Assembly: GCA_902384455.1 (NCBI GenBank) | Contig: CABMCB010000083.1 | Span: 1 to 17,106 of the forward strand | Direction: 5' to 3' | Length of the DNA: 17,106 bases | Source: an uncultured archaeon | GTDB taxonomy: Archaea; Altiarchaeota; Altiarchaeia; IMC4; SCGC-AAA252-I15 | Shown: in pieces, positions 131-14,346 of the stretch | Layout of the letters: each line of letters begins with the position of its first letter | Numbering within the stretch: position 1 is the stretch's first letter | Translations under genes and position numbers: made by a program | The notes under the pieces: generated by a model | Database searches by the model: none | What the model was told of the DNA's origin: nothing | Seen by the model: only the letters and a program-made list of their open reading frames with translations

Positions 131-157
131 TTGCTGTCACCCAAAAAAGTGAGCAAC

Positions 158-409
158 TTACGTTGCATGTCGGTCGTTATATTTTGGGCAGAATTCTTGG
201 CATCGCAAGTTGCCCATTCGGTCATCGGTTCCGTCTATGATGAAGGCGCAGGCGTTAGCGTCGAACGGGCAGGGGTCGCCTGTATCCATTCCCGGCTGTT
301 TGCGGTAGATTTCCATGCTTCCGCATTTTCCGTTTTTGCTACGGTAGAAACACATGCTGATTTTGACGTCTTCTCTGCTGTTGATTTCTGGCTTTTTCTC
401 TGAAGGCAT
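158..409 (-). CDS. Small Cys-rich hypothetical protein (83 aa)
   Basis: ATG 6 nt after GGGTG (416-420); six Cys; T-tract follows the stop. Confidence 0.7.
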   Translation of the reverse strand: MPSEKKPEINSREDVKISMCFYRSKNGKCGSMEIYRKQPGMDTGDPCPFDANACAFIIDGTDDRMGNLRCQEFCPKYNDRHAT

Positions 410-484
410 TTATTTCACCCATGCCGATACAAAAAATTTGTAGAACATTTATAACGATTCGCGGTAAATAACACTTGACCCAAC

Positions 485-2071
485 ATGAAACGCTCTGTTG
501 CTTTAGCTATAATCGGACTTTTACTATTATCCAGTTTACTATTGACCGTTAAATTTGCCAGCGCTGGGACCCTTATGCATAGTGAGGATTTCGAATCGGG
601 TGCCGCCGCTGATTTCTGGTCGTGGGAAACCGCACCATTCGATACATCAGGCACAATATCGACAACTGCTCAATATGTGCACTCAGGTACCCATGGTGCT
701 TATTTCTCAGGTCCATACACAAATTATCTAAATTGTGAATCAACTCCTAATAGTGCCGAAAAACAAACTTTTACTATTTGGGCTAAATTCTCAGATACCG
801 CTACGGACCCTAACCTTGGCACTTCTATAATTGACGCTTTTTGGGACTCAGATTATACCTATGCCAATCTTGGTACTGACGGGAATAACCACATCAACCT
901 TTCACTTATTGACAGTAATGCTGATTCCCATGGGGAAGCTCTTGTTTCAAGGAACACTTGGCATAACATAACCATGACTGTTTTGCTGACAGAAGGCGCC
1001 TCAATAGTTGATTCTGCTTTATACTTGGATGGCACTCAAGTTGGAACATCCTCTGTAACTTTGGGGAGTCCAACAGCAACAGATTCTTTTTCAATCGAAG
1101 TCAGCGTTTTCGCATACTCAGGGTACGTTGCAATGGATGACATTAAGCACTATTCTGGCTCTACGTTGGTTAACTCTGTAGACTTGGAATGTGGGGGTTG
1201 GGGCGCAGATTGGACGAAGGGGGTTTCGCCAAAAAGTGGCTATGTTGTCTCTGACACCGCAGATTATATCCACTCGGGCGATTATGGTGCATACTTCGCC
1301 CACTATGATGACGGGTCAACTTCCAACAACATGTACTACAAACCCGCTACGCTGTCTCCCACTGTAGAAAACAGTCTTGCAAATGCTCGGGTATTCACTG
1401 TTTGGGCAAAATTCTCAGCTACATCAAGCGACCCGACAGCTTTCAACTCTAATCCCGCGAACTTTTTCGTATTTTGGCTTACCGATGCCATGACAGGTTT
1501 TGCTATATCTTCCCCAAACGCTAACAACCAATTAACTATCGATACCTTTGACACGGCAAGTTCTATACCTCTTCAGCGCGATACATGGCTAAACTGTACT
1601 GCCGCATTCTATTTTACATCAAACACTGACCCTGAGTCAATGGAAGAGCAACCATACATACTCCATGCGCTCTTTTATGTCAACGGTGTTGCTGACGGTG
1701 CCCGTGAAATACCTCGAACTGAAGCTCAAGTATCAACTCCCACTGCTGGGAATGTTTATCTGTACAACTTCAATTGGGCAGACGGGTATGTTGCAGTCGA
1801 TGACTTCAAAGAAACAATTGGCGGCGACAGCGGTTCAACTCCAACACCCACTCCTACAGCTACGCCAACTTCAACTCCACATTCGGGAACTGTGAGCGGC
1901 AGTAGCGGAACCCACAAAAGCACTTCAACACCAACAGTTGCCCCCTCTGAAACCGACGCCGGTATCTTGGGCTTTTTAGCTCTCGTGCCATGGTGGCTCT
2001 GGGCGATAATTGCTGGCTGTATCGTTGTCGCTATACTGATTGTGGTACAAGCGAAAACGGACCACCCATGA
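485..2071 (+). CDS. Cell-surface protein: signal peptide, two tandem LamG/concanavalin A-like beta-sandwich domains, Pro/Thr/Ser linker, C-terminal TM anchor (528 aa)
   Basis: Hydrophobic N-terminus ending ASA. Duplicated motifs YvHSG..GAYF, FT.WAKFS, W.N.T, LY.DG/FYVNG and GYVA.DD.K, which resemble LamG. TPTPTPT linker and hydrophobic C-terminus. TTTATAA at 448-454. Confidence 0.8.
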   Translation: MKRSVALAIIGLLLLSSLLLTVKFASAGTLMHSEDFESGAAADFWSWETAPFDTSGTISTTAQYVHSGTHGAYFSGPYTNYLNCESTPNSAEKQTFTIWAKFSDTATDPNLGTSIIDAFWDSDYTYANLGTDGNNHINLSLIDSNADSHGEALVSRNTWHNITMTVLLTEGASIVDSALYLDGTQVGTSSVTLGSPTATDSFSIEVSVFAYSGYVAMDDIKHYSGSTLVNSVDLECGGWGADWTKGVSPKSGYVVSDTADYIHSGDYGAYFAHYDDGSTSNNMYYKPATLSPTVENSLANARVFTVWAKFSATSSDPTAFNSNPANFFVFWLTDAMTGFAISSPNANNQLTIDTFDTASSIPLQRDTWLNCTAAFYFTSNTDPESMEEQPYILHALFYVNGVADGAREIPRTEAQVSTPTAGNVYLYNFNWADGYVAVDDFKETIGGDSGSTPTPTPTATPTSTPHSGTVSGSSGTHKSTSTPTVAPSETDAGILGFLALVPWWLWAIIAGCIVVAILIVVQAKTDHP

Positions 2072-2078
2072 AAAAAAG

Positions 2079-2441
2079 TTAGGACTCATCAGCTTGAACT
2101 TCAAAGTCCTCTTGGTAGATGTCACGCAATGAGTCCTCAGCTTCCCCAACACTTTTTTCAGCTTTCTCAACTAAGAAGTAGGCGTCTGCCCTGTTGTCTT
2201 CAATGCGCTCTTTTTTGAATTTGCTGAGCTTTTCACTTAGCTCTGCCGCTTCCTCTTGAAGTGCTTTTGCTTCCTCTATGGGCGTCATAGGGCGCTTAAT
2301 TTTTATCGTAACAATGTCTTGAGGTTTCAATTCTAAGCGACGAGTAACTGACTTTTTCATGTTCTCGACGAATTCTTCCTGACTGCACTTTGGGTTGGGG
2401 AAATCTTCTGGTGCTCCCTGTACTATAACTTCAACTGGCAT
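2079..2441 (-). CDS. Hypothetical protein with a coiled-coil-like C-terminal half (120 aa)
   Basis: ATG 5 nt after GGGTG (2447-2451); E/K-rich helical segment. Confidence 0.75.
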   Translation of the reverse strand: MPVEVIVQGAPEDFPNPKCSQEEFVENMKKSVTRRLELKPQDIVTIKIKRPMTPIEEAKALQEEAAELSEKLSKFKKERIEDNRADAYFLVEKAEKSVGEAEDSLRDIYQEDFEVQADES

Positions 2442-2451
2442 TTTTTCACCC

Positions 2452-2480
2452 TAAAAATTTTTTTGATAAGCGCTAAATAG
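2452..2480 (+). promoter_or_regulatory. Conserved promoter (AT tract + GATAAGC + TATA-like box), copy 1
   Basis: TAAAAATTTTTTTGATAAGCGCTAAATAG; the first 20 nt are identical to 14347-14366. Confidence 0.65.
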
Positions 2481-2516
2481 GTAGCATACCCACTTCGCTA
2501 TTAAAGGTTGGTATTC

Positions 2517-3206
2517 ATGAAAAAATCACATGCATATGCTCTAATCGCAGTCGGCGTTATCGCCCTTGTCCTCAGCGCTGTCGTCCTACAATACACCAAC
2601 GTCTTCGCTACTGGCGCACCAAGCACTAAAATCGACGAAAAGAAAGCCACCCAAGATACTCAAGCGGCAGGCGGCATAGGCTACGTCTACGTTGCGGCAA
2701 TTTTGGGCTTTGAAGATGGAAGCACACAAGAAATCAGCACAAACACAACAATGTTCACACCCGTAAAACCGGCGTGGGTAGCATTCGAAAATCACACCCT
2801 TGTTTACATGCAAATTGACTTCAGAGCAACAATGGTTCAAGACATCGGAAGCTGGAACACCAAAGTAACATCACAAATAGAAGCATACAAAAGCTCATCA
2901 ATCCCTAAAACAAGCGCGTCTGCTGACTTCAAAATGAACGGTGCCTCATGGGGCGCTGGCGTAACAAAAACAATCTCTTCAACCACCCTGTCTCAAAGCC
3001 AAATCAACGAAGCTCTGACAAAGTGGGGCGACGGAGAATGGGTCTTCCAAATCAACAGCAAAGTAGCCCTAACATGCACTTTAAGCAACGGCGCTCAAGA
3101 CTACGTAGCAATTAACCCCTCGGCAGATATTAGCCTTACATTCGCAGGTCAAGAACCGACAAATGGCATGGCAACGATGAACGTCAACATCATGGCTGGA
3201 CAGTAA
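2517..3206 (+). CDS. Secreted or N-terminally anchored hypothetical protein (229 aa)
   Basis: MKK followed by a hydrophobic stretch; T/S-rich beta-like body. ATG 2517 preferred over TTG 2508 because AGGTTGG lies upstream. Conserved promoter at 2452-2480. Confidence 0.8.
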   Translation: MKKSHAYALIAVGVIALVLSAVVLQYTNVFATGAPSTKIDEKKATQDTQAAGGIGYVYVAAILGFEDGSTQEISTNTTMFTPVKPAWVAFENHTLVYMQIDFRATMVQDIGSWNTKVTSQIEAYKSSSIPKTSASADFKMNGASWGAGVTKTISSTTLSQSQINEALTKWGDGEWVFQINSKVALTCTLSNGAQDYVAINPSADISLTFAGQEPTNGMATMNVNIMAGQ

Positions 3207-3243
3207 ACTGTCCCTTCCACTCTTTTTTCACCCATAGAAAAAT

Positions 3244-3260
3244 GTAGCAGTTGCTACTTT
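3244..3260. repeat. Palindrome GTAGCAGTTGCTAC(TTT), identical copy at 9628-9644
   Basis: 17-nt exact repeat overlapping the TAG stops of two unrelated genes; variants at 7894-7907 and 11616-11629. Confidence 0.75.
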
Positions 3261-5362
3261 TCGGTTTTATCTGGGAGCTTCAGTTGGTCGTCTGAAAGCA
3301 TTATTCCCGTATGTCCCCAATGAATCGTAGTAACGTATGTGTTTGGCTTGTGGGTCTCGGCGTCAGGTGGTGTCAGCTTCTTTAGGCATCGGTTGCATAT
3401 TGGAATCGCCACCGATAATTCTGGGGTGTCGTCGTCCCAATATTCATATGCTTCCTCTTTTTTCTCGTCAAAGTTGTAGTTAGTATGCATTGAGTGCCGT
3501 CTAAAGAATGGGTCTCTGATTTTATCCATAGGGTCAACGTCTTGTAGTCGACTGTTGCCGATGTATGCATCGTTCTGTTGGTGTAGGTGCTCTACGATGT
3601 CGCGTTGTAGCTCTTCTGGTTTTACGCCGAAAAAGGCGCAGATTTGCCGGTAGTCTTGGAATTTCAACTCGACAATAACGTGCCATCTATACTTTTTACA
3701 GCATGGGCATGGCGTTTTGTATCTGTCCTCTGCGTACCTTGAGAGATGATACTTGCCGAGTTCGTTCCAAATTACAGAGGTCGTGTTCTTGAGACCATAT
3801 TTTGCATCTGTCATTGTGGGAATTGTATCGTGCCCCCATCGGTAGTATGAAGCTGGGCTTACTCCCCGCCGCATTCTTCCTTCGCGGTCCCTTTCTAAGG
3901 GGCGTATGTCTGTGTAGAGCTTTAGTATCGGCACCTGAATCAATGTAGGTTCTTTGACGTCTTGGGTTCCAAACTCAGTGTAGCGCTCAGTAAAAGCGGG
4001 GTACCCCATAAATGGGTAGAGCCTATTGCCTAGCGCTTTCTTAACTACTTCTACGACGTCATGGCTTTTTATGAAGGTTTCAAACCATTTGAAGGCTTGT
4101 TCAGCACTTGCTTTGTAGTCAATGTGAAGCTGTTTTTTCACTTCGATAGCGACTTTTTCTCTTTTCTGGTACTCGATGACTGCGGTCACGTATTCTTTTG
4201 TGCCGATTACTCCTAAGAGGCAATTGCGGTCAATGGGTGTGATGCTTGTAATTTTCGAGGCGTATTTGTTGACTAAGTAACTGCTCGCGTCTGCGTGGCT
4301 TTCTGATTTTGGTCTGGTGAAGTCGATTTTGCCTGTTTTGTCTTCCAGCATTTTTAGAGCTTCGTTAGGCGTGATGCCCTGCTCTATTTTGTTTTCTTGG
4401 CAGTTGATGTAGTGTAAGACTCTGAAAACGAAAAGACTGAGCCATGCTCCGTTTTCTGGCTCTTTTTCGAACATCGCTTTGAGGGACCCACGAATTAAGA
4501 CTTTGCGCTTTTTGATGGTGATTGCTGTGCAGGTTGACGGCTTGGCTTCCGTTAGCAGTTGGTCATAGGGTAGCCACATGTTGCCGAATCGTCGCTCAAG
4601 GTAATCGTCGGGTTTTCGGTCGCCAGATGGATTGTTGATGTCTAAACGTCTCTCTGAGTTTTCTACGACGTAAAGCGTTTGTTTCCATATGATAAAGAAG
4701 TACACGTTAGGCTTGTAGTAGTATATCTTGTGTCGCATGAATGTCATTATCAGGTAGTTACCTTTTTGTTGCTGGGTCTTCTCGAAGAACTTGTTTTCGA
4801 AATACCAGATTAGGTCTTCTGGGTCTTCGATTTCCAGTAAATCGTCAAACAAGATGAGGTCTTCGCTTTCTGTTGGTGCAATCTTTAGGTCGGCAATTTT
4901 GAGTACTTGGAATTGACATCGGTCGGTGCCGATTGATACTTTGGCACAGTCATAAACGGCTTGTAGAACCCGGTCATTAAGAATTGGCGTCAGCCACTGT
5001 TTGAGTGTTGCATAGGATTTTGTGCTGTTCATGACGATAGCGAGAAACTTGTTTCTGTCTTCCTCGCTGAATTCTTGAAGGTCTGTGATTAGGAAGTCAA
5101 TTTTGGTAGTGTAGTTCTGGTAGAGGTTGATTGCTTTTATGAGCCATTCCCAAGGTGTGCCCTGCGCCCGTTCAATAAGCTCTTTGATGTCGTCGTGAAG
5201 CCAACAATCGTTTCCTGAGCCTTGAAAGTAGTTTTTGTCTTTGAATTTTTGGTATAATTCAACGCCGCGTTTGTTGTTTAGCTGGCGATAAATGAGTAAA
5301 TCGTTAATTGCGTCCAGAATTGCTTGCGGGGGATTCATGTAACTTCTGAAGTCGAATGTCAA
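3254..5362 (-). CDS. Large hypothetical protein (702 aa) with possible Zn-binding CPCC...CNRC pairs near the C-terminus
   Basis: Long ORF; TTG 6 nt after GGGTG (5369-5373). I recognise no family. Confidence 0.85.
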   Translation of the reverse strand: MTFDFRSYMNPPQAILDAINDLLIYRQLNNKRGVELYQKFKDKNYFQGSGNDCWLHDDIKELIERAQGTPWEWLIKAINLYQNYTTKIDFLITDLQEFSEEDRNKFLAIVMNSTKSYATLKQWLTPILNDRVLQAVYDCAKVSIGTDRCQFQVLKIADLKIAPTESEDLILFDDLLEIEDPEDLIWYFENKFFEKTQQQKGNYLIMTFMRHKIYYYKPNVYFFIIWKQTLYVVENSERRLDINNPSGDRKPDDYLERRFGNMWLPYDQLLTEAKPSTCTAITIKKRKVLIRGSLKAMFEKEPENGAWLSLFVFRVLHYINCQENKIEQGITPNEALKMLEDKTGKIDFTRPKSESHADASSYLVNKYASKITSITPIDRNCLLGVIGTKEYVTAVIEYQKREKVAIEVKKQLHIDYKASAEQAFKWFETFIKSHDVVEVVKKALGNRLYPFMGYPAFTERYTEFGTQDVKEPTLIQVPILKLYTDIRPLERDREGRMRRGVSPASYYRWGHDTIPTMTDAKYGLKNTTSVIWNELGKYHLSRYAEDRYKTPCPCCKKYRWHVIVELKFQDYRQICAFFGVKPEELQRDIVEHLHQQNDAYIGNSRLQDVDPMDKIRDPFFRRHSMHTNYNFDEKKEEAYEYWDDDTPELSVAIPICNRCLKKLTPPDAETHKPNTYVTTIHWGHTGIMLSDDQLKLPDKTEK

Positions 5363-5385
5363 TTAAAACACCCAAGGAAAAAAGA

Positions 5386-5613
5386 TTAGGGATTTGTTGG
5401 AAGATTAACTTTGTCATCTTTGAAGTGTATCGTTAAGAACAAGAGTTTGCGCTGTTTTTCCTTTAGCTGAGCTATGGTTCCGTCGATTTCTTGATTGTTC
5501 TTTTGTAGTTTTTTGATGGTCTCAGCGTTTTCTTTTCGTAAGTCTTGAAGCTGTTTAATCGATGCGCCTATCTCTCGGTATTCATCATGTGGGTTCTTTG
5601 TGGGGGTGCTCAT
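5386..5613 (-). CDS. Small coiled-coil hypothetical protein (75 aa)
   Basis: Heptad-like pattern. Start overlaps the end of the upstream gene and uses GTGG rather than TGGGTG. Confidence 0.7.
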   Translation of the reverse strand: MSTPTKNPHDEYREIGASIKQLQDLRKENAETIKKLQKNNQEIDGTIAQLKEKQRKLLFLTIHFKDDKVNLPTNP

Positions 5614-6031
5614 TTAACCACTTTATGTATCGTTCATAGGCAAAGTCGCCGAAGGTGCCGTCACTGTTGAAGTCATAACCCTTATTTCCGTAAAAACCGG
5701 GATTCGCTGTTTCTTTTTGCAATGGTTCAACAACTTGCGCCATGAATTGGTCCCACGTATAGCGCCTGTCGTAGCTGTCGTAGATTGTTGCCGTACCGAT
5801 TACTTTCTTCCATTCTTCAATGGTTCTTGCTTCCAACTGTTGCCATTTGCCGTCGACTTTGATGTTGACGTATGGTCGCCACTCGAAGAGAAACCTGAAT
5901 TTTGTGCCGTTTTCTGATGTTTCCTTTATGGTTCTGCCTAGTAGAATCGCATCAAATCGTTCGCAACTTCCGCACTTGTTCGCTTCAAAGTAGAATTTTA
6001 CTTCAAAAAGACCGCTTGGAGCGTAGTCCAA
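5585..6031 (-). CDS. Hypothetical protein (148 aa; MDYAPSGLFEVK...) with CGSC motif
   Basis: Start moved from 6115 to TTG 6031, 6 nt after GGGTG (6038-6042), because 6051-6176 holds a separate gene. Confidence 0.7.
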   Translation of the reverse strand: MDYAPSGLFEVKFYFEANKCGSCERFDAILLGRTIKETSENGTKFRFLFEWRPYVNIKVDGKWQQLEARTIEEWKKVIGTATIYDSYDRRYTWDQFMAQVVEPLQKETANPGFYGNKGYDFNSDGTFGDFAYERYIKWLNEHPHKEPT

Positions 6032-6050
6032 TAAATTCACCCAAAAATAG

Positions 6051-6176
6051 TTATGGCGCTGGCAGTCCTCTTTTCTTCCAGCATTTTGAACAAAGTATTT
6101 CTCCCGTTCCCCCATGACGAGTGTTTTTAGGGACGGGATTATGGCACACGTCGCAAAATTCTATGTCACTACTCAT
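6051..6176 (-). CDS. 41-aa zinc-finger microprotein MSSDIEFCDVCHNPVPKNTRHGGTGEILCSKCWKKRGLPAP (not in the ORF track)
   Basis: Translated by hand. CxxC-x17-CxxC. ATG 8 nt after GGGTG (6185-6189); stop 7 nt before the next junction motif (6038-6043). Confidence 0.75.
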   Translation of the reverse strand: MSSDIEFCDVCHNPVPKNTRHGGTGEILCSKCWKKRGLPAP

Positions 6177-6207
6177 CTTAAATGCACCCAAATAGAAAAA
6201 GGAAAAT

Positions 6208-6849: not shown

Positions 6850-6871
6850 TTGAGTTCACCCACGATTCATA

Positions 6872-6898
6872 CAAATTTTTTGAATAAGCGCTAAATAG
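6872..6898 (+). promoter_or_regulatory. Conserved promoter, copy 2
   Basis: CAAATTTTTTGAATAAGCGCTAAATAG; shares ATAAGCGCTAAATAG with copy 1. Confidence 0.65.
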
Positions 6899-6920
6899 TC
6901 TCTTCTACTATTTGAAACCT

Positions 6921-7190: not shown

Positions 7191-7196
7191 TAGTTT

Positions 7197-7877
7197 TTGC
7201 GAAAACAAGCTCTCACCGCTCAAGTAGTAAAACGCCAATTTGGTCCCCAACTCAAAGCAATAGTTGAGGCAACAAACAAAGACAACCTTGAGCGCGGCAT
7301 ACGTTTCTGCCGAACCATGGATGGCAAACTGTTTTTAGGCGGACGCGACGACCTCCGCGGTCACTTATTCCCCGGAGAACCAGACATTGGCACTTCCACC
7401 GAAACATCTTTCGGCGGCTGTCCAAACGACAGCGAAAACGGTCATGTTGGCGTAGGAAGCTTCCATACTCACCCAGCACCCGGTACTAACGGACCAAGCC
7501 CAGCGGACATAAACACCTATGGCAGTAACGCGCAACATCGCAAGTATCCCAGCATTTTCCATTATGACGACACGCCCTATGGCAAAAGCGAGCTTGATTG
7601 CATCGCTGACAGCAAAGGTGAAATGATTTGCATAACTGGCGTTGACAGGGGAAAAGCCGCTGGATACGACATTATTTTTGCTCTTGGCGGCGACAAAGAA
7701 ATGGCTGAATGTCTGAAAGAACTCAAGCGAAAGCATCCCGGCGAGAACATAAGTCCGTATGATACTGAAGGTGCTGACATCGGCATAGTTGCGGAAGCTG
7801 AATCGAAGTGCGCTGACCCCTTCTTTAGGCGATATGCGGATAGTAACGATATAACGTTCTCTACTGTGACTCTGTAG
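7197..7877 (+). CDS. JAB/MPN (JAMM)-like metalloenzyme domain protein (226 aa)
   Basis: E(RG)...GSFHTHPAPGTNGPSPAD fits E-xn-HxH-x7/8-SxxD. TTG start preceded by AGGTGA, which overlaps the upstream stop. Confidence 0.7.
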   Translation: MRKQALTAQVVKRQFGPQLKAIVEATNKDNLERGIRFCRTMDGKLFLGGRDDLRGHLFPGEPDIGTSTETSFGGCPNDSENGHVGVGSFHTHPAPGTNGPSPADINTYGSNAQHRKYPSIFHYDDTPYGKSELDCIADSKGEMICITGVDRGKAAGYDIIFALGGDKEMAECLKELKRKHPGENISPYDTEGADIGIVAEAESKCADPFFRRYADSNDITFSTVTL

Positions 7878-7903
7878 GCACCCAATAAAAAAAGTAGCGG
7901 ATG

Positions 7904-8158
7904 TTACTCTTTTTTAATTGTTTCGATGTAATAGACAAGCAAACCGTGGAAAACAACTGCATACATCATGAAGTTGCCCTTTCGTAGGTCCTTGAAAACG
8001 GGGACTTCGCCGGTAAGTCTTTTGTTGATGAAGTCGATGAATTCGTCTTCTGTGATTATTTCTATTGCGCTTGATTTTATGTGGATGGTTGCGCCGAGTA
8101 TGGTTACATTTTTTGCTTCATCTTTCAGGGTTTTCTCAAATTCTTCTATGTTGTCCAT
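7904..8158 (-). CDS. Hypothetical protein (84 aa)
   Basis: ATG 6 nt after GGGTG (8165-8169). Confidence 0.75.
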   Translation of the reverse strand: MDNIEEFEKTLKDEAKNVTILGATIHIKSSAIEIITEDEFIDFINKRLTGEVPVFKDLRKGNFMMYAVVFHGLLVYYIETIKKE

Positions 8159-8188
8159 TTAATGCACCCAAAGAAAAAAAGAAGAGAC

Positions 8189-8704
8189 TTATTTGGCTAT
8201 GATTGGCTGTTCAGGATTTTTCTGCTTTTTAGGACCGCGTGGACAATAATCGTTGCATACGCCCTTAAAACAGACGCATTCATAAAACGATTTGTCATGG
8301 CTGAAACCGTCTTCACGATGGATTTTGTGCTTCTTTCTACAGTATCTTTTCTGCTCTGCTTTGGTTTTGCCTTTCGGATTGCCCTTCACTAGATACCGGC
8401 AAATGTATTCTTCAAAGCCTTCCGTTCGAGCTTTGACAACCATTGCGATTGCTTCCTTCTCGGGAATGCCCAGAAGCTGTGAAGCTAACGCAATGTGATT
8501 ACAAAACATGCCGGCTTTGCATGCTGGACAGCTTACTAAGTGCTCTTTGTCGAGCATTAGTGTTTCAAAGTATGCTTTGAGTTTGGCGACCCACGTCTCA
8601 ATCTCTGCTCGGGAATATTCTACTGTGTCGTTTTTGCCTGACTCGCTACAGTGAATCATACCATGTGGAAAATTTGCGATTGTTGATTCTGGCATTGGTT
8701 CCAT
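8189..8704 (-). CDS. Cys/His-rich hypothetical protein (171 aa), possible SWIM-like Zn finger (CPAC-x5-CNH) plus a C-terminal Cys cluster
   Basis: ATG 6 nt after GGGTG; Cys pattern seen in the translation. Confidence 0.75.
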   Translation of the reverse strand: MEPMPESTIANFPHGMIHCSESGKNDTVEYSRAEIETWVAKLKAYFETLMLDKEHLVSCPACKAGMFCNHIALASQLLGIPEKEAIAMVVKARTEGFEEYICRYLVKGNPKGKTKAEQKRYCRKKHKIHREDGFSHDKSFYECVCFKGVCNDYCPRGPKKQKNPEQPIIAK

Positions 8705-8730
8705 TTATCTCACCCAAAAAAGGGCATCGC

Positions 8731-8907: not shown

Positions 8908-8931
8908 GTTTGTCACCCAAAAGAGAAAAAA

Positions 8932-9204
8932 TTAGGGTTTAACTGGCGCTACTTTTCTGACGCCCCAATTAGAGATTTCCGAGTGCTTTGCCGCGAAGCT
9001 TAACTGGATGTGGCTTTCACAAAACTTTGGTAGCTTTTTCGATTCAATGTCAATGCTGGGGTCTTCTCGCAGGTCATCTAAATCGCTTTCAATCATGGTT
9101 TCGGCGTCGTAAGTGTCGAAATCCGCATCATTGCTGTCGACAATGTCATGTCCTTGTTTCTGCCTGCCGTCCGCTCGAATCCACCAATAAACTGTAAATT
9201 TCAA
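8932..9204 (-). CDS. Acidic hypothetical protein (90 aa; MKFTVYWW...)
   Basis: Start moved to TTG 9204, 6 nt after GGGTG (9211-9215), which removes the overlap with the upstream gene. Confidence 0.7.
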   Translation of the reverse strand: MKFTVYWWIRADGRQKQGHDIVDSNDADFDTYDAETMIESDLDDLREDPSIDIESKKLPKFCESHIQLSFAAKHSEISNWGVRKVAPVKP

Positions 9205-9227
9205 TGTTAGCACCCAAAAAAGAGGGG

Positions 9228-9545
9228 TTAGGCTCTCTCGATGATTGCCCAAGCGGTCATGCGTTGCATTTTTCTGAATCCTTCTTTTAGTCCGATACAG
9301 CCCATGTCTTTGTATTCCCAGATGTCGCTCTGGATTACTTCACCTTTAACGTCATAGAGGGTAACTTTGAGCTTTAGTTTGTTTGTTATGCCTCGATAGT
9401 TGTTGATTCCGACACGATACTGGACTGCGAGCATTGGGACCTGCTCTGTTTTGTCGCCGATTTTCAGCGGCTGGGTTACTGCAATGTGACCGTCCAGCGT
9501 TTTTTCGTCGCCAACACAAGTTCTGAAATGTAGCCTAAAATCCAA
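9228..9545 (-). CDS. Hypothetical protein (105 aa)
   Basis: TTG 6 nt after GGGTG (9552-9556); alternative GTG at 9554. Confidence 0.7.
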   Translation of the reverse strand: MDFRLHFRTCVGDEKTLDGHIAVTQPLKIGDKTEQVPMLAVQYRVGINNYRGITNKLKLKVTLYDVKGEVIQSDIWEYKDMGCIGLKEGFRKMQRMTAWAIIERA

Positions 9546-9624
9546 GATTTTCACCCATTTCCGGCTCTAGCACTTTTTAGTCATTTAGGGTGGGTTTTTT
9601 GTGCTAAAAAGCCTCAAGACAAAA

Positions 9625-9644
9625 AAAGTAGCAGTTGCTACTTT
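9625..9644. repeat. Inverted repeat AAAGTAGCA-GT-TGCTACTTT
   Basis: 9-bp perfect arms overlapping the stop of 9638..9883. Confidence 0.75.
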
Positions 9645-9883
9645 ATGAAGACTATTATGTTTCTCTTTTGCAGACGCTTCAGCGCGTCTTTGACCTCGTC
9701 GCTTTTTTGGAATTCTTTGTTGATTTCATCGACAGTGACATCGTGGAACATGCAGTGTTTCTTGACGAATGTGATGATGTCTCGCTGAAGCTTTCCGCAT
9801 CGCCAAGTTGTGTTCGCTTTTAGGCGAACTATGGTTTTGTCGCTCTTCAGGTGTCTTACCTCTGTCTTAACGAATAATTCCAT
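9638..9883 (-). CDS. Small basic hypothetical protein (81 aa), possibly winged-helix-like C-terminus
   Basis: ATG 5 nt after GGGTG (9889-9893). The EVKDALKRLQKRNII helix suggests wHTH only weakly. Confidence 0.7.
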   Translation of the reverse strand: MELFVKTEVRHLKSDKTIVRLKANTTWRCGKLQRDIITFVKKHCMFHDVTVDEINKEFQKSDEVKDALKRLQKRNIIVFIK

Positions 9884-9917
9884 CTAATCACCCATATGTA
9901 CTTTTTAGACGTTTTGC

Positions 9918-11099
9918 TTACAAAGAAAAGGGGGGAAGCGTAAGCTTCGGTAGTAGCTCAGGGTGGACCCAAACGATTTGTGGTGGGTTCCAGTTGATTT
10001 TGGTGTAGCGCTCTTTGCAGGTTTCTTTAAGCCATGCTTCGGTTTTGGTTAGGTTTTCTTCCCAATTCTCTTTATTGAATAGCCGTTTTTCTGCGAGACT
10101 GCCGTGTAGTCCTGTTTCTTCAATGCTTGTACTCCACCAATCGCCAAACATTGTGTTGCCAGTTTCAGTGATGACCATAAGCTCAACTCTGCATAAGCGG
10201 TTGTAGATGACTCCGTCGACTTTGATTTTTTCCCATGCTGGACGGTTGTCTGGCGCTTTGAAGTCAGTGGCTAAGACGTTCTTTTCAACGTCTGAAGAGT
10301 AGTAGTATTTGTTGTAGATTCGCACTGTGGCGTCGCTCTTGTAGGATTTGATTGTGAAGACTATGGGTGCTTCTTTGTCTGCGACTTCTCGGATTGTTGA
10401 GATTGCTTCGAAGTCTGTGAGCTTGTATTTGCTGATTGTCTCTTCGTACTCTTCTTTGGTTGCCCGGTATTGCTGTAGAAAGCCTGAGTAAATGTGTGCT
10501 CGGTGTTTCTCTGCGTACCGCTTTAGCTCTTCAATTGTTGGTGCGTCCAAGATTTTCTGCTCAACGTTGGGGTTAACTCCGCCAGTGTTGACGTTTACGC
10601 CGCTATAGTATGTCTGTAGGTCCATAAGTGGTGTGAAGGCACAGCGCCCGTAGACCATAAGTGAGTACTTGTTTTTGGGTTTGTCATTTTCTGCGATGCA
10701 AAGGACTAAGTGCAGGTATTTGTCCCTGAAAAGGTCGGGTAGCCAGATGATTTGATGGTTGTTGTAGCCTGAGAACTTGGTTGTATCGACATTGATTGTG
10801 GCTGTTTTCTCTTCGATTTCCTTCTGGGCGTTAAGGATTTTTAGCTTGAAATCAACATCTTTGAAGGTTGCGCCGATGCTATCGATTTCAGCGTCCAGCT
10901 TGCTTTTTTCTTGTTCTGCCTCATCGTGGATGACTTTGATTCTTGCATCTTTTTCCTTCTTTAAATTGGCAATTATCTCGTCGTAGCCGTCAGTGATTTT
11001 CTGTTCTTTTGCACTGGCAATAGCCGCTTTTACCGATTTCTCGCCGGTTACCTCCAAAAGTTTGTCCCTGTTAGCTAAGTATTCTTCGACTTCTTTCAA
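9918..11099 (-). CDS. Hypothetical protein (393 aa) with an N-terminal coiled coil
   Basis: Long ORF; TTG 8 nt after GGGTG (11108-11112). Alternative ATG at 11114 overlaps the motif. Confidence 0.85.
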   Translation of the reverse strand: MKEVEEYLANRDKLLEVTGEKSVKAAIASAKEQKITDGYDEIIANLKKEKDARIKVIHDEAEQEKSKLDAEIDSIGATFKDVDFKLKILNAQKEIEEKTATINVDTTKFSGYNNHQIIWLPDLFRDKYLHLVLCIAENDKPKNKYSLMVYGRCAFTPLMDLQTYYSGVNVNTGGVNPNVEQKILDAPTIEELKRYAEKHRAHIYSGFLQQYRATKEEYEETISKYKLTDFEAISTIREVADKEAPIVFTIKSYKSDATVRIYNKYYYSSDVEKNVLATDFKAPDNRPAWEKIKVDGVIYNRLCRVELMVITETGNTMFGDWWSTSIEETGLHGSLAEKRLFNKENWEENLTKTEAWLKETCKERYTKINWNPPQIVWVHPELLPKLTLPPFSL

Positions 11100-11154
11100 A
11101 CTATTTTCACCCATACCGCAACGCTTTAATTTTCAGCGCTCGCAATAACATGAC

Positions 11155-11613
11155 ATGCAACTCCCACGCTACCATCCAATCGTTCCCTTTGTTCTCTTCG
11201 GCGGCATTGTTCTGCTATTCACAAGCCTTGATTTCCTAGTTAACAGCACGCTTTACCACTTTGGCTTAGTCTTCGACAATGCGTGGTTCGGACCCTACTC
11301 GTGGATTTACTTGTTCATGTATCAGTTTGCTATACTTCTGCTTTGGCTACCCAACCGGGATATGCGCTTCATGATTTTTGGTCAAGCGTTCTTTTGGAGC
11401 GCCACCCAAGACCTCGTCTACTTCATGCTCTGGCAAGGTTACATGCCAGCCGCTAATCAAGATTGGTGGTGGTCAAACTACCGTTTGGTTTTCGGCTCTT
11501 GGACAACACCCTTGCAAATAACAATTTCGACCATTGGGTGCACACTAGCCGTTACTGCCATACTTCTCATGACTGTGCGGGGCTATCGTCCACCAAAATG
11601 CGCTTGCGGATAA
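11155..11613 (+). CDS. Integral membrane protein (152 aa, about 4 TM segments)
   Basis: Several hydrophobic, aromatic-rich segments; TTTAATTT at 11125-11132. Confidence 0.8.
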   Translation: MQLPRYHPIVPFVLFGGIVLLFTSLDFLVNSTLYHFGLVFDNAWFGPYSWIYLFMYQFAILLLWLPNRDMRFMIFGQAFFWSATQDLVYFMLWQGYMPAANQDWWWSNYRLVFGSWTTPLQITISTIGCTLAVTAILLMTVRGYRPPKCACG

Positions 11614-11646
11614 AAGTAGCGTTTGCTACACCCATGAAAAAAGGGG

Positions 11647-11871
11647 TTACATTTCGTCTAACCCGTTTGAGCACTCGGAGCAAATGCTTGGGTTAAACGA
11701 CGTGATTTTGTAGCGTTTTCTGCATATGGTACAGATGCCTTGGCATACGCCTTTATGCTTGCATGTTTCGCAGTTATCAAAATTGTTTTTTCTTTTATGT
11801 TCATCAAAACAATTGCTGATTTGCGCGGGCGTTTTGCCATGGCGTGGTCCTATATAATGGTCAATTGTCAT
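11647..11871 (-). CDS. Small multi-Cys (Zn-binding-like) protein (74 aa)
   Basis: ATG 8 nt after GGGTG (11880-11884); CETC, CQGIC, CTIC and CSEC motifs. Confidence 0.7.
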   Translation of the reverse strand: MTIDHYIGPRHGKTPAQISNCFDEHKRKNNFDNCETCKHKGVCQGICTICRKRYKITSFNPSICSECSNGLDEM

Positions 11872-11904
11872 AAAGTGGGCACCCAATAAAAAAAGAAGAG
11901 AAGA

Positions 11905-12633
11905 TTAAACGGTAACAAACTCAAACTTTTTATCTTCCTTTTTAACGAGCAAAGACATTTTCGACAACGGTTCCTCTTGGTATTTCTCGATGCTGACCAT
12001 GAAACGATGCGTTATTGGAGGGTCTAAGACAAGCTCTAAACGGTACAGGTCTGGACCCCGCGTTGACTTTTCGACCGCGAATACGCCGGTTACTTTTGTG
12101 TTGACTTCGCCAACTACTGGATACGGCTCGGAAGTGGTAACTCCTTGTACGTCTTGCATGACTGCGTAAATGAGTGGTGGCAGGTTTAGCTCTTTGAGCT
12201 TTTTTATGGTCTCGGGTAAGGTTAATCCTTTCCATTCTGCCTCAAGTTGTCGTCGGTATTCGATTGTGACTTCATGTCTGATTTCTTCTATGATGTCGCA
12301 GATTCTGCGTTCGCCGATGAGGTAGTCTTTTGCGTTTTGGGACGCTTCAAGTACCGCTTTCTTTTCGTCCCAGAGTCCGTCGTAGTCTGACTTAAGCTCT
12401 TTTGAGAGCCGTTTCCAGACTGCATCAATTTTTATCATGTCTTCCACGGGTTGGTCAAAGAACTCTTGAAGTTTGTCGCTTTTGTACTCCATCAATCGCT
12501 GGCAGTAGTTTCTCTCTTTGAGGCTGTCTTTTAGCTCAGCGTCAGCGTTCCATTCGGTTTTTTCTTCTTTCATCCAATCGGACGTCAGAATTGCCGAAAG
12601 TATGTCTTTATCGCTTGGTTGCATTGAATGCAT
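11905..12633 (-). CDS. Hypothetical protein (242 aa)
   Basis: ATG 5 nt after GGGTG (12639-12643). Confidence 0.8.
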   Translation of the reverse strand: MHSMQPSDKDILSAILTSDWMKEEKTEWNADAELKDSLKERNYCQRLMEYKSDKLQEFFDQPVEDMIKIDAVWKRLSKELKSDYDGLWDEKKAVLEASQNAKDYLIGERRICDIIEEIRHEVTIEYRRQLEAEWKGLTLPETIKKLKELNLPPLIYAVMQDVQGVTTSEPYPVVGEVNTKVTGVFAVEKSTRGPDLYRLELVLDPPITHRFMVSIEKYQEEPLSKMSLLVKKEDKKFEFVTV

Positions 12634-12691
12634 TGATTCACCCATCACAAGTTTTAAATCTACAGAGCGGTCACAAGCTTATTGACCACAT

Positions 12692-12898
12692 ATGGCTGAA
12701 GTAATAACTGCATCAACTGCTCAAATCGTTGTCGGCACTACTATCGCCGTCACAAGTGCTTTGGTTCTTGAAGAGATACGCGAACAAAGAAAAAATGGGC
12801 GAAGCCCACTCAAGCTTGCCGGTTCTCTTCTATGGCGAGGTATCTGTGCGCTGGGTAGAGGATTCGCCGCTTTAATCCGCTATTGTCTTAAGCGGTAG
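12692..12898 (+). CDS. Small membrane-associated protein (68 aa)
   Basis: Hydrophobic N-terminus and amphipathic C-terminus; TTTTAAAT at 12652-12659. 3' end overlaps the convergent gene by 11 nt. Confidence 0.6.
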   Translation: MAEVITASTAQIVVGTTIAVTSALVLEEIREQRKNGRSPLKLAGSLLWRGICALGRGFAALIRYCLKR

Positions 12899-13253
12899 CT
12901 GAGAGTCCCTTTTTGCTCATAAATTCTGCATGGGCTTCATTTCCTTTCTTAAAAATCTCGTTCGGCTCTTTTTCTGCACATGAAGCACACATTGGTTTTA
13001 GAAGGTACTTATCGATTAATGCTTTCATCCATGGGCGAAAATAGATTGTAAGCCCACATTTTTGGCATTCCATTTTAACGCTGTCTCCGTAGTAGTCGAT
13101 AAGTGGTCCAGCGGCAACGCTGTTAACTGCGGCTTTGGCGCCATATTTTGCCACAACTTCTGAAAGCCGTTGCTCTGTCAGCGTTTTATTGTAGATGTCC
13201 CGCAGATTGCCAAGTGCTTGGCGGATATTCAGCTTCGGATTAAGAGTTGTCAT
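12888..13253 (-). CDS. Zn-ribbon-containing hypothetical protein (121 aa)
   Basis: CQKC...CASC; ATG 5 nt after GGGTG (13259-13263). Confidence 0.75.
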   Translation of the reverse strand: MTTLNPKLNIRQALGNLRDIYNKTLTEQRLSEVVAKYGAKAAVNSVAAGPLIDYYGDSVKMECQKCGLTIYFRPWMKALIDKYLLKPMCASCAEKEPNEIFKKGNEAHAEFMSKKGLSATA

Positions 13254-13274
13254 GCTGTCACCCAAAAAAAGAGG

Positions 13275-13670
13275 TTAGGAGTGTTTTCGGTTTTCGTCTC
13301 CTATGGCTGTGATGAATTTCGGGACTTGATTCATTGACCGTAACAATTCTTCGCTTATCTGGGCTTGAGGGTATCGCGGCTTGATTACTTTGAGGTATGT
13401 CTGCTCTATGCTCAGCTTGCCGTCGCCATCGTACCAGAACAATAATGTAGCAATTGCTACACTGCGAGATACGCCTGCTTGGCATTGGAGAATTACTCGC
13501 TCGGTCGAAAGTAGATTGTCGACACCTATCGTTTTCGCAAGGAGTTTTCCCGGGTGATTCTTCCCGTCAACAAGCTCCCGGCAGTCAACAATGATTGAGC
13601 CGTACTCTTCTGGTTTCAATTCATCGCTCGGTGTTTTAATCCCTATTTTGCTCGTTAACCAAATTACCAT
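13275..13670 (-). CDS. Dual-specificity/protein-tyrosine phosphatase family protein (131 aa)
   Basis: P-loop VILQCQAGVSRS (CX5R), upstream acid loop LVDG, downstream helix ending in RYP; ATG 7 nt after GGGTG. Confidence 0.85.
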   Translation of the reverse strand: MVIWLTSKIGIKTPSDELKPEEYGSIIVDCRELVDGKNHPGKLLAKTIGVDNLLSTERVILQCQAGVSRSVAIATLLFWYDGDGKLSIEQTYLKVIKPRYPQAQISEELLRSMNQVPKFITAIGDENRKHS

Positions 13671-13684
13671 TCGGTAGCACCCAT

Positions 13685-13712
13685 ACAAAATCTTTGAATA
13701 AGCCTTAAATTG
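13685..13712 (+). promoter_or_regulatory. Conserved promoter, copy 3
   Basis: ACAAAATCTTTGAATAAGCCTTAAATTG upstream of 13745. Confidence 0.6.
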
Positions 13713-13744
13713 ATTGCCCCTCGCCTAAAGAATTAGGCGAAAAA

Positions 13745-13948
13745 ATGGGAAGCCATGACGAAAACGCAAAAGCATTAAGAGCAATAGGGTCCAAAGTCTT
13801 CAAAGCGGCTAACGTCAAGGACTGCAAATCTCAAGGCTCAACCGTCATATGCGACGTTGACTTCAAAGTCCCTGATTCTGACGTTACAAAGCACACTGTT
13901 TGTACGTTGCCTGACGACACATTCCGCTTTGACTGCAAAGAAAAGTAA
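13745..13948 (+). CDS. Small hypothetical protein (67 aa, 4 Cys)
   Basis: Conserved promoter at 13685-13712; AGGCGA SD; T-tract after the stop. Confidence 0.7.
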   Translation: MGSHDENAKALRAIGSKVFKAANVKDCKSQGSTVICDVDFKVPDSDVTKHTVCTLPDDTFRFDCKEK

Positions 13949-13958
13949 GGACCTCTAC

Positions 13959-13969
13959 TTTTCTTTTTT
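13959..13969 (+). terminator. Oligo-T archaeal-type terminator after 13745..13948
   Basis: TTTTCTTTTTT directly before AGGG-CACCCA. A similar TCTTTTTT at 3221-3228 follows 2517..3206. Confidence 0.5.
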
Positions 13970-13991
13970 AGGGCACCCAAAAGAGAAAAAA

Positions 13992-14180
13992 TTAGGGAAG
14001 AGCAAGCCACTGCCTCACTTCGCCTTTTACTCTTAGCTCTTCGATAGCCGCTTGGAACGTCGCTTTCTCTTCAGGCATAACACTGAAGTCCCGTAGCATT
14101 TCCTCAACTTCAACAATATCGGGGCTTTCTTCGTCAAGCTTGTCTCGAATTAGTTTTTTAAAATCTTCTTTACTTCGCAT
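13992..14180 (-). CDS. Small hypothetical protein (62 aa; MRSKEDFKK...)
   Basis: Start moved to ATG 14180, 5 nt after GGGTG (14186-14190). Confidence 0.7.
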   Translation of the reverse strand: MRSKEDFKKLIRDKLDEESPDIVEVEEMLRDFSVMPEEKATFQAAIEELRVKGEVRQWLALP

Positions 14181-14233
14181 AAATGCACCCAAAAGGTGGT
14201 GGGACGTGCCAGCCGATGACTCCGCCAGATAGC

Positions 14234-14317
14234 TTATTTCTGACGGTGGTGCTTTAATGTCATCGGCGCGAAACGTTCCCTTTTCGCTAGGGCTTTGGCA
14301 CGTTGCAGTCTTTGCAT
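14234..14317 (-). CDS. Possible 27-aa basic peptide MQRLQRAKALAKRERFAPMTLKHHRQK
   Basis: Translated by hand; ATG 9 nt after GGGTG (14327-14331). The unit could instead be non-coding. Confidence 0.35.
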   Translation of the reverse strand: MQRLQRAKALAKRERFAPMTLKHHRQK

Positions 14318-14346
14318 TTCGGTGTACACCCATATAAAGCATCGCT

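Follow-up and report, generated by a model that had tools for sequence, protein, structure and literature searches.

What is the six-letter word TGGGTG that stands before almost every minus-strand gene of contig C83, and why does it also stand where no gene follows? The window analysed here is the whole of that contig, 17,106 nucleotides (nt) long, one of 103 contigs in a 2.41-Mb archaeal metagenome-assembled genome (MAG). An earlier note on the window had described a co-oriented hexamer (CACCCA on the plus strand, TGGGTG on the minus strand) at its gene junctions, and had proposed that it is the core of a cassette-capture system and also a ribosome-binding site. Our analysis found, ahead of nearly all genes, a junction of about 25 nt whose 6-nt core does not vary, and whole genes that come and go at this core between strains. 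With slightly more confidence than doubt, we read the junction as a terminator-like and ribosome-binding unit whose repetition drives a gene turnover like that of the promoter-early stem-loops (PeSLs) of T4-type phages.

CACCCA was counted 38 times in the window, compared with 6.72 ± 2.50 expected from 200 dinucleotide-preserving shuffles (maximum 13). None of the 200 shuffles reached the observed count, and a chance origin was rejected on this ground. Thirty-three copies read CACCCA on the plus strand (TGGGTG on the minus strand), and the other five, which have TGGGTG on the plus strand, lie within genes or at the contig end. Of the 28 plus-strand CACCCA copies from 138 to 14332, 24 are at junctions and four inside plus-strand genes (1845, 2648, 7470 and 11403); a 25th junction copy (2447-2452) is the one-mismatch variant CACCCT, which the minus strand reads as AGGGTG. 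The recount therefore returned the 25 junction copies of the earlier note, 24 of them exact and all in one orientation, and its units of about 0.14-2.1 kb (consecutive junction copies are 141-2140 nt apart, as calculated by hand from the coordinates). Twenty copies had been described as placed like a Shine-Dalgarno (SD) sequence. Nineteen are followed on the minus strand, 5-8 nt on, by an ATG, TTG or GTG that opens an open reading frame (ORF) of at least 40 amino acids (aa), and the copy at 14327 by a 9-nt spacer and a 27-aa ORF; the ORF after the copy at 138 extends past the contig end. The five copies said to lie between convergent stop codons (2063, 3229, 7879, 11629 and 13974) are orphans. 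Each closes a minus-strand operon, standing behind the stop codon and T-run of the operon's final gene; it leads into no gene of its own and is faced by a convergent plus-strand gene. The hexamer is conserved at all five convergent operon ends of the window, and none of the eight plus-strand genes is preceded by TGGGTG, which the earlier note had also stated. The junction copies are listed by position.

138-143, minus strand: hexamer with a T-run upstream; TTG 130 opens an ORF that leaves the contig
416-421, minus strand: promoter-proximal hexamer, 6 nt from ATG 409 of an 83-aa gene (158-409)
2063-2068, minus strand: orphan hexamer after the stop and T-run of gene 2079-2441; overlaps the final codons of plus-strand gene 485-2071
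2447-2452, minus strand: the variant AGGGTG, sole one in the window, promoter-proximal; ATG 2441 of a 120-aa gene
3229-3234, minus strand: orphan hexamer after the stop of the 702-aa gene, a hairpin and a T-run; plus-strand gene 2517-3206 is convergent
5369-5374, minus strand: junction hexamer; TTG 5362 starts the 702-aa gene
6038-6043, minus strand: junction hexamer; TTG 6031 of a 148-aa gene, with the stop of the 41-aa gene just upstream
6185-6190, minus strand: junction hexamer; ATG 6176 of the 41-aa gene
6857-6862, minus strand: promoter-proximal hexamer; ATG 6849 of a 213-aa gene
7879-7884, minus strand: orphan hexamer after the stop of gene 7904-8158, a hairpin and a T-run; faces plus-strand gene 7197-7877
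8165-8170, minus strand: junction hexamer; ATG 8158 of an 84-aa gene
8711-8716, minus strand: junction hexamer; ATG 8704 of a 171-aa gene
8914-8919, minus strand: junction hexamer; GTG 8907 of a 58-aa gene
9211-9216, minus strand: junction hexamer; TTG 9204 of a 90-aa gene
9552-9557, minus strand: hexamer without a T-run; TTG 9545 of a 105-aa gene
9889-9894, minus strand: hexamer without a T-run; ATG 9883 of an 81-aa gene
11108-11113, minus strand: promoter-proximal hexamer of a 398-aa gene that starts at ATG 11114 (overlapping the hexamer) or TTG 11099
11629-11634, minus strand: orphan hexamer at an operon end, one edge of a 251-nt unit missing in a relative
11880-11885, minus strand: junction hexamer; ATG 11871 of a 74-aa gene, second edge of the 251-nt unit
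12639-12644, minus strand: promoter-proximal hexamer; ATG 12633 of a 242-aa gene
13259-13264, minus strand: junction hexamer; ATG 13253 of a 121-aa gene
13678-13683, minus strand: promoter-proximal hexamer; ATG 13670 of a 131-aa gene, one edge of a 296-nt unit
13974-13979, minus strand: orphan hexamer after the stop of gene 13992-14180, second edge of the 296-nt unit
14186-14191, minus strand: hexamer; ATG 14180 of a 62-aa gene
14327-14332, minus strand: promoter-proximal hexamer with only a 27-aa ORF beyond its 9-nt spacer

Apart from the junctions, nine CACCCA copies lie on the sense strand within plus-strand genes (1845, 2648, 7470, 11403, 14873, 15084, 15389, 16060 and 16601), which exceeds the composition-based prediction. 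Two of the nine belong to Pro-Thr linker repeats, and 1840-1869 and 15384-15413 are 83% alike.

Dense, strand-biased hexamers are confined to nine contigs of the MAG (C83, C87, C73, C91, C15, C37, C75, C45 and C31), which total 52,369 bp and have a guanine-plus-cytosine (GC) content of 0.43-0.46; the bulk of the MAG has a GC of 0.49-0.54. These contigs hold 127 copies (2.43 per kb), versus 0.52 per kb in the remaining 2.36 Mb. When copies were counted in full context, defined as a T4 run plus a start codon with an ORF of at least 40 aa, there were 74 on the nine contigs and 20 in the rest of the MAG. Low-GC contigs in general were rejected as an explanation, as C26, C98, C99, C36, C57, C42 and C63, which are cellular sugar and aromatic-biosynthesis islands, are without the junction. 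By their sequence the nine contigs look like fragments of one or a few closely related, ORFan-rich, virus- or plasmid-like archaeal elements, hereafter the element, of at least 52 kb and incomplete as recovered.

On the gene strand a junction opens with a stop codon, to which a GTAGC-N4-GCTAC hairpin is sometimes added, and continues with a T-rich run containing few C, then TGGGTG, a spacer and a start codon. The nine contigs carry 112 gene-strand copies of TGGGTG, which fall into four classes. Sixty-five have the stop of an upstream ORF within 30 nt, a T4 run and a downstream ORF. Fifteen have the stop and the T-run without an ORF of at least 40 aa within 3-9 nt, about ten of these being true orphans on inspection. 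Nineteen are promoter-proximal (a downstream ORF and no upstream stop), and 13 are other or intragenic. A run of T is found at 92 of the 127 element copies, and positions -8 to -1 before the hexamer are 69-88% T with almost no G. In the 80 T-run junctions the upstream stop codon is TAA in 63 cases, and the gap from stop to hexamer is 7-27 nt in 79 and 0 nt in one. The sequence feature of an archaeal oligo-T intrinsic terminator, a T-run directly after the gene end, is present, with the stop codon 7-27 nt upstream of the hexamer. Downstream, the spacer to the start codon (n = 74) measures 4 nt once, 5 nt in 27 copies, 6 nt in 30, 7 nt in 9 and 8 nt in 7, and the start codons are ATG (50), TTG (22) and GTG (2). 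The idea that the hexamer is a coding overlap, with TTG or ATG formed together with it, was rejected since 5- and 6-nt spacers are equally common; with no frame preference, the hexamer is not coding. Full-context hexamers are exact in 73 of 75 cases, with two one-mismatch variants, and the near-invariance of the 5' T in the earlier description holds across the element. The junction is also repeated beyond its core: the 24 nt at 8914-8937 are identical to those at 13974-13997, and junctions on different contigs match over 34-47 nt at 86-97% identity.

The element has 19 GTAGC-N4-GCTAC hairpins with a fixed 5-bp stem and a variable 4-nt loop, 15 of them followed by a T-run and the hexamer. The strict combination of hairpin and T-run occurs 12 times in the element's 52 kb versus 5 times in the remaining 2.36 Mb. 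Hairpins in the window, one of them with a GTAAC arm, are the following.

3244-3257, minus strand: GTAGC-N4-GCTAC hairpin, then a T-run, terminator-like; directly before the T-run at 3229
7894-7907, minus strand: GTAAC-N4-GCTAC hairpin, then a T-run; directly before the T-run at 7879
9628-9641, minus strand: GTAGC-N4-GCTAC hairpin, then a T-run; after gene 9638-9883 and about 70 nt before the hexamer at 9552
11616-11629, no strand assigned: GTAGC-N4-GCTAC hairpin between the orphan hexamer at 11629 and the end of plus-strand gene 11155-11613, with T-runs flanking it on both strands

The T-run, sometimes with its hairpin, looks like an archaeal terminator or attenuator.

The comparison of breakpoints in relatives, which the earlier note had named beforehand as a test, was made with assembled contigs of a public wastewater metagenome run (X1). 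The relative in this run covers 30 of the 30 window bins and is 87-92% identical to the window over the listed pieces. Ten joints separate it from the window, and at four of these both ends lie at hexamer copies, with the unit between them missing or non-aligning in X1.

11629-11879, minus strand: absent unit of 251 nt with the 74-aa gene, a T-run and one hexamer; clean deletion in X1
13677-13972, no strand assigned: absent unit of 296 nt with a 29-nt promoter-like module and a 67-aa plus-strand ORF (13745-13948)
8172-8723, minus strand: non-aligning unit with the 171-aa gene; joint 8171>8724, 552 nt, no alignment of at least 80% in the X1 main contig
8923-9206, minus strand: non-aligning unit with the 90-aa gene; joint 8922>9207, 284 nt, no alignment of at least 80% in the X1 main contig

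The joint 11628>11880 lies in one contiguous X1 record, and the six letters shared by its two sides are the hexamer; in X1 the 74-aa gene is gone and one hexamer remains to close the operon. At the joint 13676>13973 seven letters are shared (TGGGTGC on the gene strand), and the intervening X1 sequence is marked "not known". In place of the units at 8171>8724 and 8922>9207 the X1 record may hold other sequence, whether a replacement or a highly diverged allele. On a further X1 contig the match to the window starts only at 8165, a hexamer's first base, and the sequence on the gene side is different. The six remaining joints comprise a 199-nt replaced stretch (408>607), a stretch that has diverged within a gene for a surface protein and, beyond 14571, four gaps in plus-strand genes, each of about 100 nt. 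None of the six is hexamer-bounded at both ends, and 408>607 alone begins near a copy (416-421). Roughly 4% of the window lies within 8 nt of a plus-strand copy (33 x 22 / 17,106), and 8 of the 8 ends of the four joints fall there; this is far from random, although the fair null would be breakpoints at gene boundaries, each of which holds a hexamer. A comparable case occurs inside the MAG, where C31 and C91 share a gene at 94.8% identity, the match begins in the T-run and the sequence upstream is unrelated. Assembly artefacts are an unlikely source of the X1 joints because the shared words are shorter than the usual assembly k-mers. Units are thus gained or lost at the repeated site, as cassettes are in an integron (four hexamer-bounded joints, two of them clean). 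This part of the cassette-capture proposal stood; nothing was found that indicates integron-like, recombinase-driven capture.

Sixty other genomes of the phylum gave 0-5 matches each to the junction pattern, versus 75 in this MAG (pattern matches, in which nested T-runs are counted several times). Two junction patterns were scanned against IMG/VR and returned 101 and at least 119 stretches, almost all of them single chance matches; among the matches listed only IMGVR_UViG_3300006076_000613 (L077) shows a hexamer array. Its first 7 kb hold 13 co-oriented hexamers, 11 of which read TGGGTGGT. Most have an upstream T-run and an ATG 5-6 nt after the hexamer, and two are without a start there. L077 carries a PCNA-like gene, and the sole protein match between L077 and the element is a weak one between PCNA-like proteins (E = 3.4e-4). 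Since the hexamer is kept in L077 though the proteins have diverged, the word is conserved beyond protein similarity. A metagenome contig, JRER01000528.1 (L112), has seven hexamers and a 35%-identical homologue of the 398-aa protein.

L077 (1-13572) is of two parts, the first ~7 kb having a GC of 0.42-0.49 and the remainder a GC of 0.60-0.68 with DUF3164 and DUF2786 proteins, which we take to be Mu-like phage families; it looks like a chimeric assembly or an insertion. On L112 a tRNA-like gene at ~4990-5157, with a CAT anticodon loop, a long intervening stretch and an encoded CCA end (ARAGORN made no call), stands directly before a T-run and TGGGTG junction, and could be a virus-borne intron-containing tRNA or the remnant of an attachment site.

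How could one junction serve both expression and turnover? In the reading that we favour, the oligo-T run after the stop codon, sometimes with a hairpin, would act as a transcription terminator or attenuator, and TGGGTG before the start codon would bind the ribosome through pairing of GGGUG with CACCU of the 16S rRNA. The roughly one hundred co-oriented copies of the junction would then offer points for illegitimate or short-homology recombination or for replication slippage, probably without a dedicated recombinase, so that whole hexamer-to-hexamer units could be deleted, inserted or swapped. Recombination or slippage of this kind is feasible because the junctions share up to 24 identical nt, and 34-47 nt at 86-97% identity between contigs. 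The empty copies at operon ends could be what remains after loss of a terminal unit, as seen at 11629/11880, and equally the insertion point of an oppositely oriented unit, as at 13678/13974.

The hexamer is most likely a ribosome-binding signal of the Shine-Dalgarno type, to judge from its sequence and position. GGGUG can form four Watson-Crick pairs and one G-U pair with 16S CACCU, and GGATCACCTCCA is the 3' terminus of eight 16S genes from the same family. In 57 of 74 copies the spacer measures 5-6 nt, and this fixed distance ties the hexamer to the translation start. The AGGTG of host contigs is most frequent 5-7 nt ahead of candidate start codons (29, 16 and 15 counts versus a background of ~5), in the same register as in the element. 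Distant homologues of the 398-aa gene on other metagenomic contigs have ordinary SDs (AGGAGGTGA, AAGGAGGT and AGGTGA) at the same place, and their contigs show strand-biased AAGGAG (e.g. 32 vs 2) or GGTGAA instead of TGGGTG. The ribosome-binding role given to the hexamer in the earlier note thus agrees with its placement, its spacing and the register of the host. That note had also named an ordinary genome-wide SD as an outcome that would undo its proposal, and neither the binned genome nor its phylum uses the hexamer in this way. SD words enriched on host contigs are AGGTG (2.9x), GAGGT (2.6x), GGTGA (2.5x), GGAGG (2.4x) and GGGTG (1.8x); a genome-wide SD was rejected, as host contigs have A/T-rich boxes and weak SDs of varying sequence in place of TGGGTG.

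Several observations weigh against the reading set out above. An SD is expected only at translation starts and is normally degenerate, as the host's are, whereas the hexamer has five orphans in the window and about ten in the element, and 73 of 75 full-context copies are exact. Its first T is unpaired in the SD register, and its second position is always G, where A would pair better. Beside the invariant hexamer the T-run is only 69-88% T, and since it is the less uniform of the two, homogenisation by recombination alone is not the cause of the invariance of the hexamer. All five minus-strand operon ends of the window have a gene-less hexamer, and plus-strand genes of the element manage without it. 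Some promoter-proximal copies are so near to A/T-rich boxes that transcription may begin no earlier than the hexamer itself, in which case the SD role would fail for those copies. L077 and L112 have the hexamer despite little protein similarity, which suggests a specific reader of the exact sequence, and candidates would be a regulator, a recombinase, a nuclease or the ribosome itself acting in a special mode. For X1 the evidence is that of assembled contigs and not of reads. Finally, a k-mer script found no CRISPR-like (clustered regularly interspaced short palindromic repeat) arrays in the MAG, hence no spacer ties the element to its host, and because of this its attribution to the MAG is by binning alone.

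The invariance and the gene-less copies are what a gene-start signal at the transcript level would account for, and among the alternatives this one survives best, unlikely as we consider it. The hexamer would be an initiator or restart point after the oligo-T terminator, or an endoribonuclease cut site that yields single-gene mRNAs, which would then carry 5' GGGUG and 3' oligo-U ends. Such a signal would explain the operon-end and post-promoter copies as well as the fixed coupling of T-run to hexamer. Archaeal RNA polymerase should, moreover, often stop where T-runs follow nearly all genes, so that downstream genes would depend on restart or read-through. Five promoter-proximal copies have an A/T-rich box that begins 25-27 nt upstream of the hexamer; by archaeal promoter geometry such a box would put the transcription start about at the hexamer. 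No conserved TATA box or B recognition element was found, however, upstream of the 65 intra-operon copies. Position counts gave no conserved TATA-like signal 20-30 nt upstream of them, and without an A/T-rich box the intra-operon copies are unlikely to be separate canonical archaeal promoters. The distance from box to hexamer also varies (13-37 nt), while that from hexamer to start codon is fixed. No RNA polymerase or recognisable nuclease family was present among the ORFs scanned, and the window had no Rfam match.

The clean joints raise a second alternative, to which we give little credence: a dedicated cassette-exchange site, at which a site-specific recombinase or a target-specific insertion uses TGGGTG as crossover core or duplicated target, the hexamer being also a ribosome-binding site. 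The identity at the two clean indels is the hexamer (6 letters) or the hexamer plus one (7), which is as such a site predicts. Units are hexamer-bounded whatever they contain, one of them being a promoter module with an opposite small ORF; an empty copy stands at 5 of 5 operon ends of the window, and the hexamer is far more invariant than the adjoining T-run. On the other side are the searches that the earlier note had proposed for a recombinase, a reverse transcriptase or an RNA polymerase, which came back empty for the element. PF00589 has five matches across the whole MAG, none of them on the nine element contigs. All Phage_integrase and Resolvase matches lie on C78, C61, C1, C10, C59 and C97, and no tyrosine or serine recombinase was found on the element contigs, the element being incomplete. 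Among 77 scanned ORFs (20 window ORFs plus 57 on element and neighbour contigs) there is no transposase, reverse transcriptase, integrase, RNA polymerase or recognisable nuclease. Six base pairs are very short for recombination, and recombination needs no tight 5-6 nt spacing to a start codon. The same pattern of indels arises without a recombinase in T4-type phages, according to the part of Arbiol et al. 2010 (PMC2839356) drawn on here. Sequence inspection of the junctions (no attC model was run) revealed no attC-like inverted repeat, and a classical integron was rejected: there is no integrase on the element contigs and no attC-like site, and the junction is ~20-35 nt long. The earlier note had likewise held that this is not a classical integron. 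We find it improbable, to the same degree, that TGGGTG is the core of a non-integron cassette-exchange system in an archaeal virus lineage, with a gene, or a promoter plus an opposite gene, as its unit and an unrecognised enzyme behind it. Hexamer-to-hexamer units would then enter or leave at any copy, also at the empty ones of operon ends, and the site would supply every captured gene with a ribosome-binding signal.

Least probable by our estimate is that TGGGTG is a plain, strongly preferred SD whose repetition has no role in recombination, selection alone accounting for whole-gene indels: its SD-like position and register agree with this, and spacers of only ~25-35 nt would force viable gene-sized indels to end near a hexamer, but the two clean joints fall inside the hexamer at single-nucleotide precision, with 6 and 7 letters shared, one lost unit is not a minus-strand gene, and the orphan copies and near-total invariance are unaccounted for.

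The divergent intergenic regions of the window hold a second repeat, a 29-nt A/T-rich module (TAAAAATTTTTTTGATAAGCGCTAAATAG and variants) with five copies.

2452-2480, plus strand: 29-nt A/T-rich promoter-like module in a divergent intergenic region
6870-6898, plus strand: copy of the promoter-like module, a sequence repeat
13684-13712, plus strand: copy of the promoter-like module, a sequence repeat
14347-14375, plus strand: copy of the promoter-like module, a sequence repeat
15825-15853, plus strand: copy of the promoter-like module, a sequence repeat

These modules are probably bidirectional promoters, each for a minus-strand operon and a plus-strand gene for a membrane or secreted protein. 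A/T-rich boxes precede the plus-strand genes at roughly archaeal-promoter distance, a distance typical of archaeal promoters of leaderless or short-leader mRNAs.

Gene content was surveyed with family searches. Only one of 20 window ORFs was above the family cut-off, a nucleotidyltransferase; the others gave nothing, a weak coiled-coil or a sub-threshold match. The nucleotidyltransferase (15870-17009, plus strand) has weak similarity to the C-terminal domain of CCA-adding enzymes. The further 57 ORFs scanned have a length of 110 aa or more; 39 come from C50 and the eight element contigs other than C83, the other 18 from C24, C33 and C44. They include PCNA-like, AAA/clamp-loader-like ATPase, NADAR, GNAT, MazE and methyltransferase families and MarR/TrmB-type regulators; no capsid, terminase, integrase, reverse transcriptase or RNA polymerase was found among these 57. 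Most of the scanned ORFs are without a Pfam or PHROG family. No tRNA gene was found in the window and 14 loci, and there were no matches to Rfam families in the window.

The 702-aa protein (3254-5362, minus strand) has conserved CxxC pairs. Only four homologues were found in 5.8 billion proteins, at 38-43% identity on contigs of 16 to 188 kb, and there was no relative in 100 related genomes. The 398-aa protein (9918-11114, minus strand) belongs to a family with an invariant E-N-D-K/R-P-K-N-K/R motif, present on 32 metagenome contigs and in 4 GTDB MAGs labelled bacterium, Thermoplasmatota and Bacteroidetes. Its AlphaFold model (mean predicted local distance difference test score 82) has a 100-residue N-terminal helix and beta-rich domains, and matched no PDB fold at E <= 0.001. 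Neither of these two proteins nor alignment A4 had relatives in IMG/VR. A 290-aa element protein gave no PDB sequence matches and no similarity to the PCNA-like protein of L077.

The MAG itself is archaeal, with RNA polymerase subunit A' and an archaeal-type leucyl-tRNA synthetase. Its own archaeal 16S rRNA gene is not among the assembled contigs, and in searches of the MAG an archaeal large-subunit rRNA and McrA were not found and an archaeal RNase P was below the cut-off. The sole small-subunit rRNA of the bin, on the 2.9-kb contig C6 (1064-2419, with the 3' end further on), is bacterial-looking and is interrupted by several hundred inserted nt ahead of its final ~100 nt, which end in GGATCACCTCCTTTCT. 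C6 is probably mis-binned because the remainder of the MAG is archaeal. C24, C33 and C44 share short regulatory stretches and one protein family with C83 and have few hexamers. Contig ends overlap at 84-95% identity between C31 and C91, C24 and C33, and C37 and C44, which suggests several co-existing element strains that broke the assembly.

The turnover of ORFan genes in archaeal viruses is poorly understood, and the element offers a concrete, testable substrate for its study. The principle is known from bacterial T4-type phages, and its archaeal implementation would be new. A full-text literature search, judged by the titles and abstract openings of its matches, gave no description of this junction, and TGGGTG as an archaeal regulatory motif was absent from the titles and abstract openings of the matches listed. 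If recombination between regulatory repeats is the cause, the PeSL principle extends to the archaeal virosphere with archaeal-style signals; if a dedicated factor (a recombinase, nuclease or initiation factor) reads the hexamer, it would be a new kind of gene-boundary signal. The junction is also useful for recognising further fragments of the element in metagenomes and for calling the true starts of small genes such as the 41-aa and 148-aa genes of the window. At 5585-6190 it implies these two genes (ATG 6176 and TTG 6031), where the ORF finder gives one 176-aa ORF (5585-6115).

Four known systems can be set beside the junction. Many archaea use SD sequences of the GGTG(A) type. Like these, the hexamer complements CACC(U) near the 3' end of 16S rRNA at a spacing of 5-7 nt; unlike them, it is invariant in 73 of 75 copies, with a constant T that does not pair and a G-U pair at a position that would allow A-U, and it is also found where no gene follows and is coupled to a T-run.

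With integrons the element shares co-oriented, mostly single, unrelated small ORFs and a repeated site at which units are gained or lost. The attC sites of integrons are imperfect inverted repeats of roughly 55-140 bp. In contrast, the element has neither attC palindromes nor a match to an IntI-type tyrosine recombinase, its junction is ~20-35 nt and its repeated word lies at a fixed SD distance from start codons. Because no recombinase is found on the element contigs and no attC-like structure in the junctions, we do not file it as an integron. Integrons have been reported in Archaea, according to the part of Ghaly et al. (bioRxiv 10.1101/2022.02.06.479319) drawn on here.

Halovirus HF2 is, like the element, archaeal in host and has repeated intergenic regulatory sequences, described in the excerpt used of Russ et al. 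2021 (PMC8707807) as regulatory elements conserved among related viruses. As given there, the HF2 repeats are 58 and 29 bp long, are A/T-rich promoters and are few, and unlike the hexamer they do not stand before every gene. Their closer counterpart in the window is the 29-nt A/T-rich module with its five copies, not the hexamer.

The PeSLs come nearest in organisation. In the portions of Arbiol et al. 2010 (PMC2839356) and Comeau et al. 2014 (PMC4122927) consulted, they are mobile regulatory cassettes of T4-type phages, and recombination between copies was shown experimentally to give insertions, deletions, replacements and mini-circles (PMC2839356); the element is known here from assembled contigs alone. 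PeSLs are described there as carrying a full sigma-70 promoter and a G/C-rich stem-loop and belong to bacterial phages. The element differs in its archaeal host, in a terminator-like part of oligo-T type with only 15 hairpins before a T-run and hexamer, and in a conserved core that is a practically invariant 6-nt SD-like word. On sequence inspection no promoter is visible at its intra-operon copies, and modules are seen only at the ~19 promoter-proximal copies. The likeness, as far as those portions of the reports describe PeSLs, is in the arrangement: a short composite motif in many copies between small, mostly ORFan viral genes, spanning from the upstream stop codon to the next SD and start codon and holding a terminator-like part. 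It extends to the outcome, in that the motifs delimit the stretches inserted, deleted or replaced between close relatives, and the mosaic of C31 and C91 fits this pattern.

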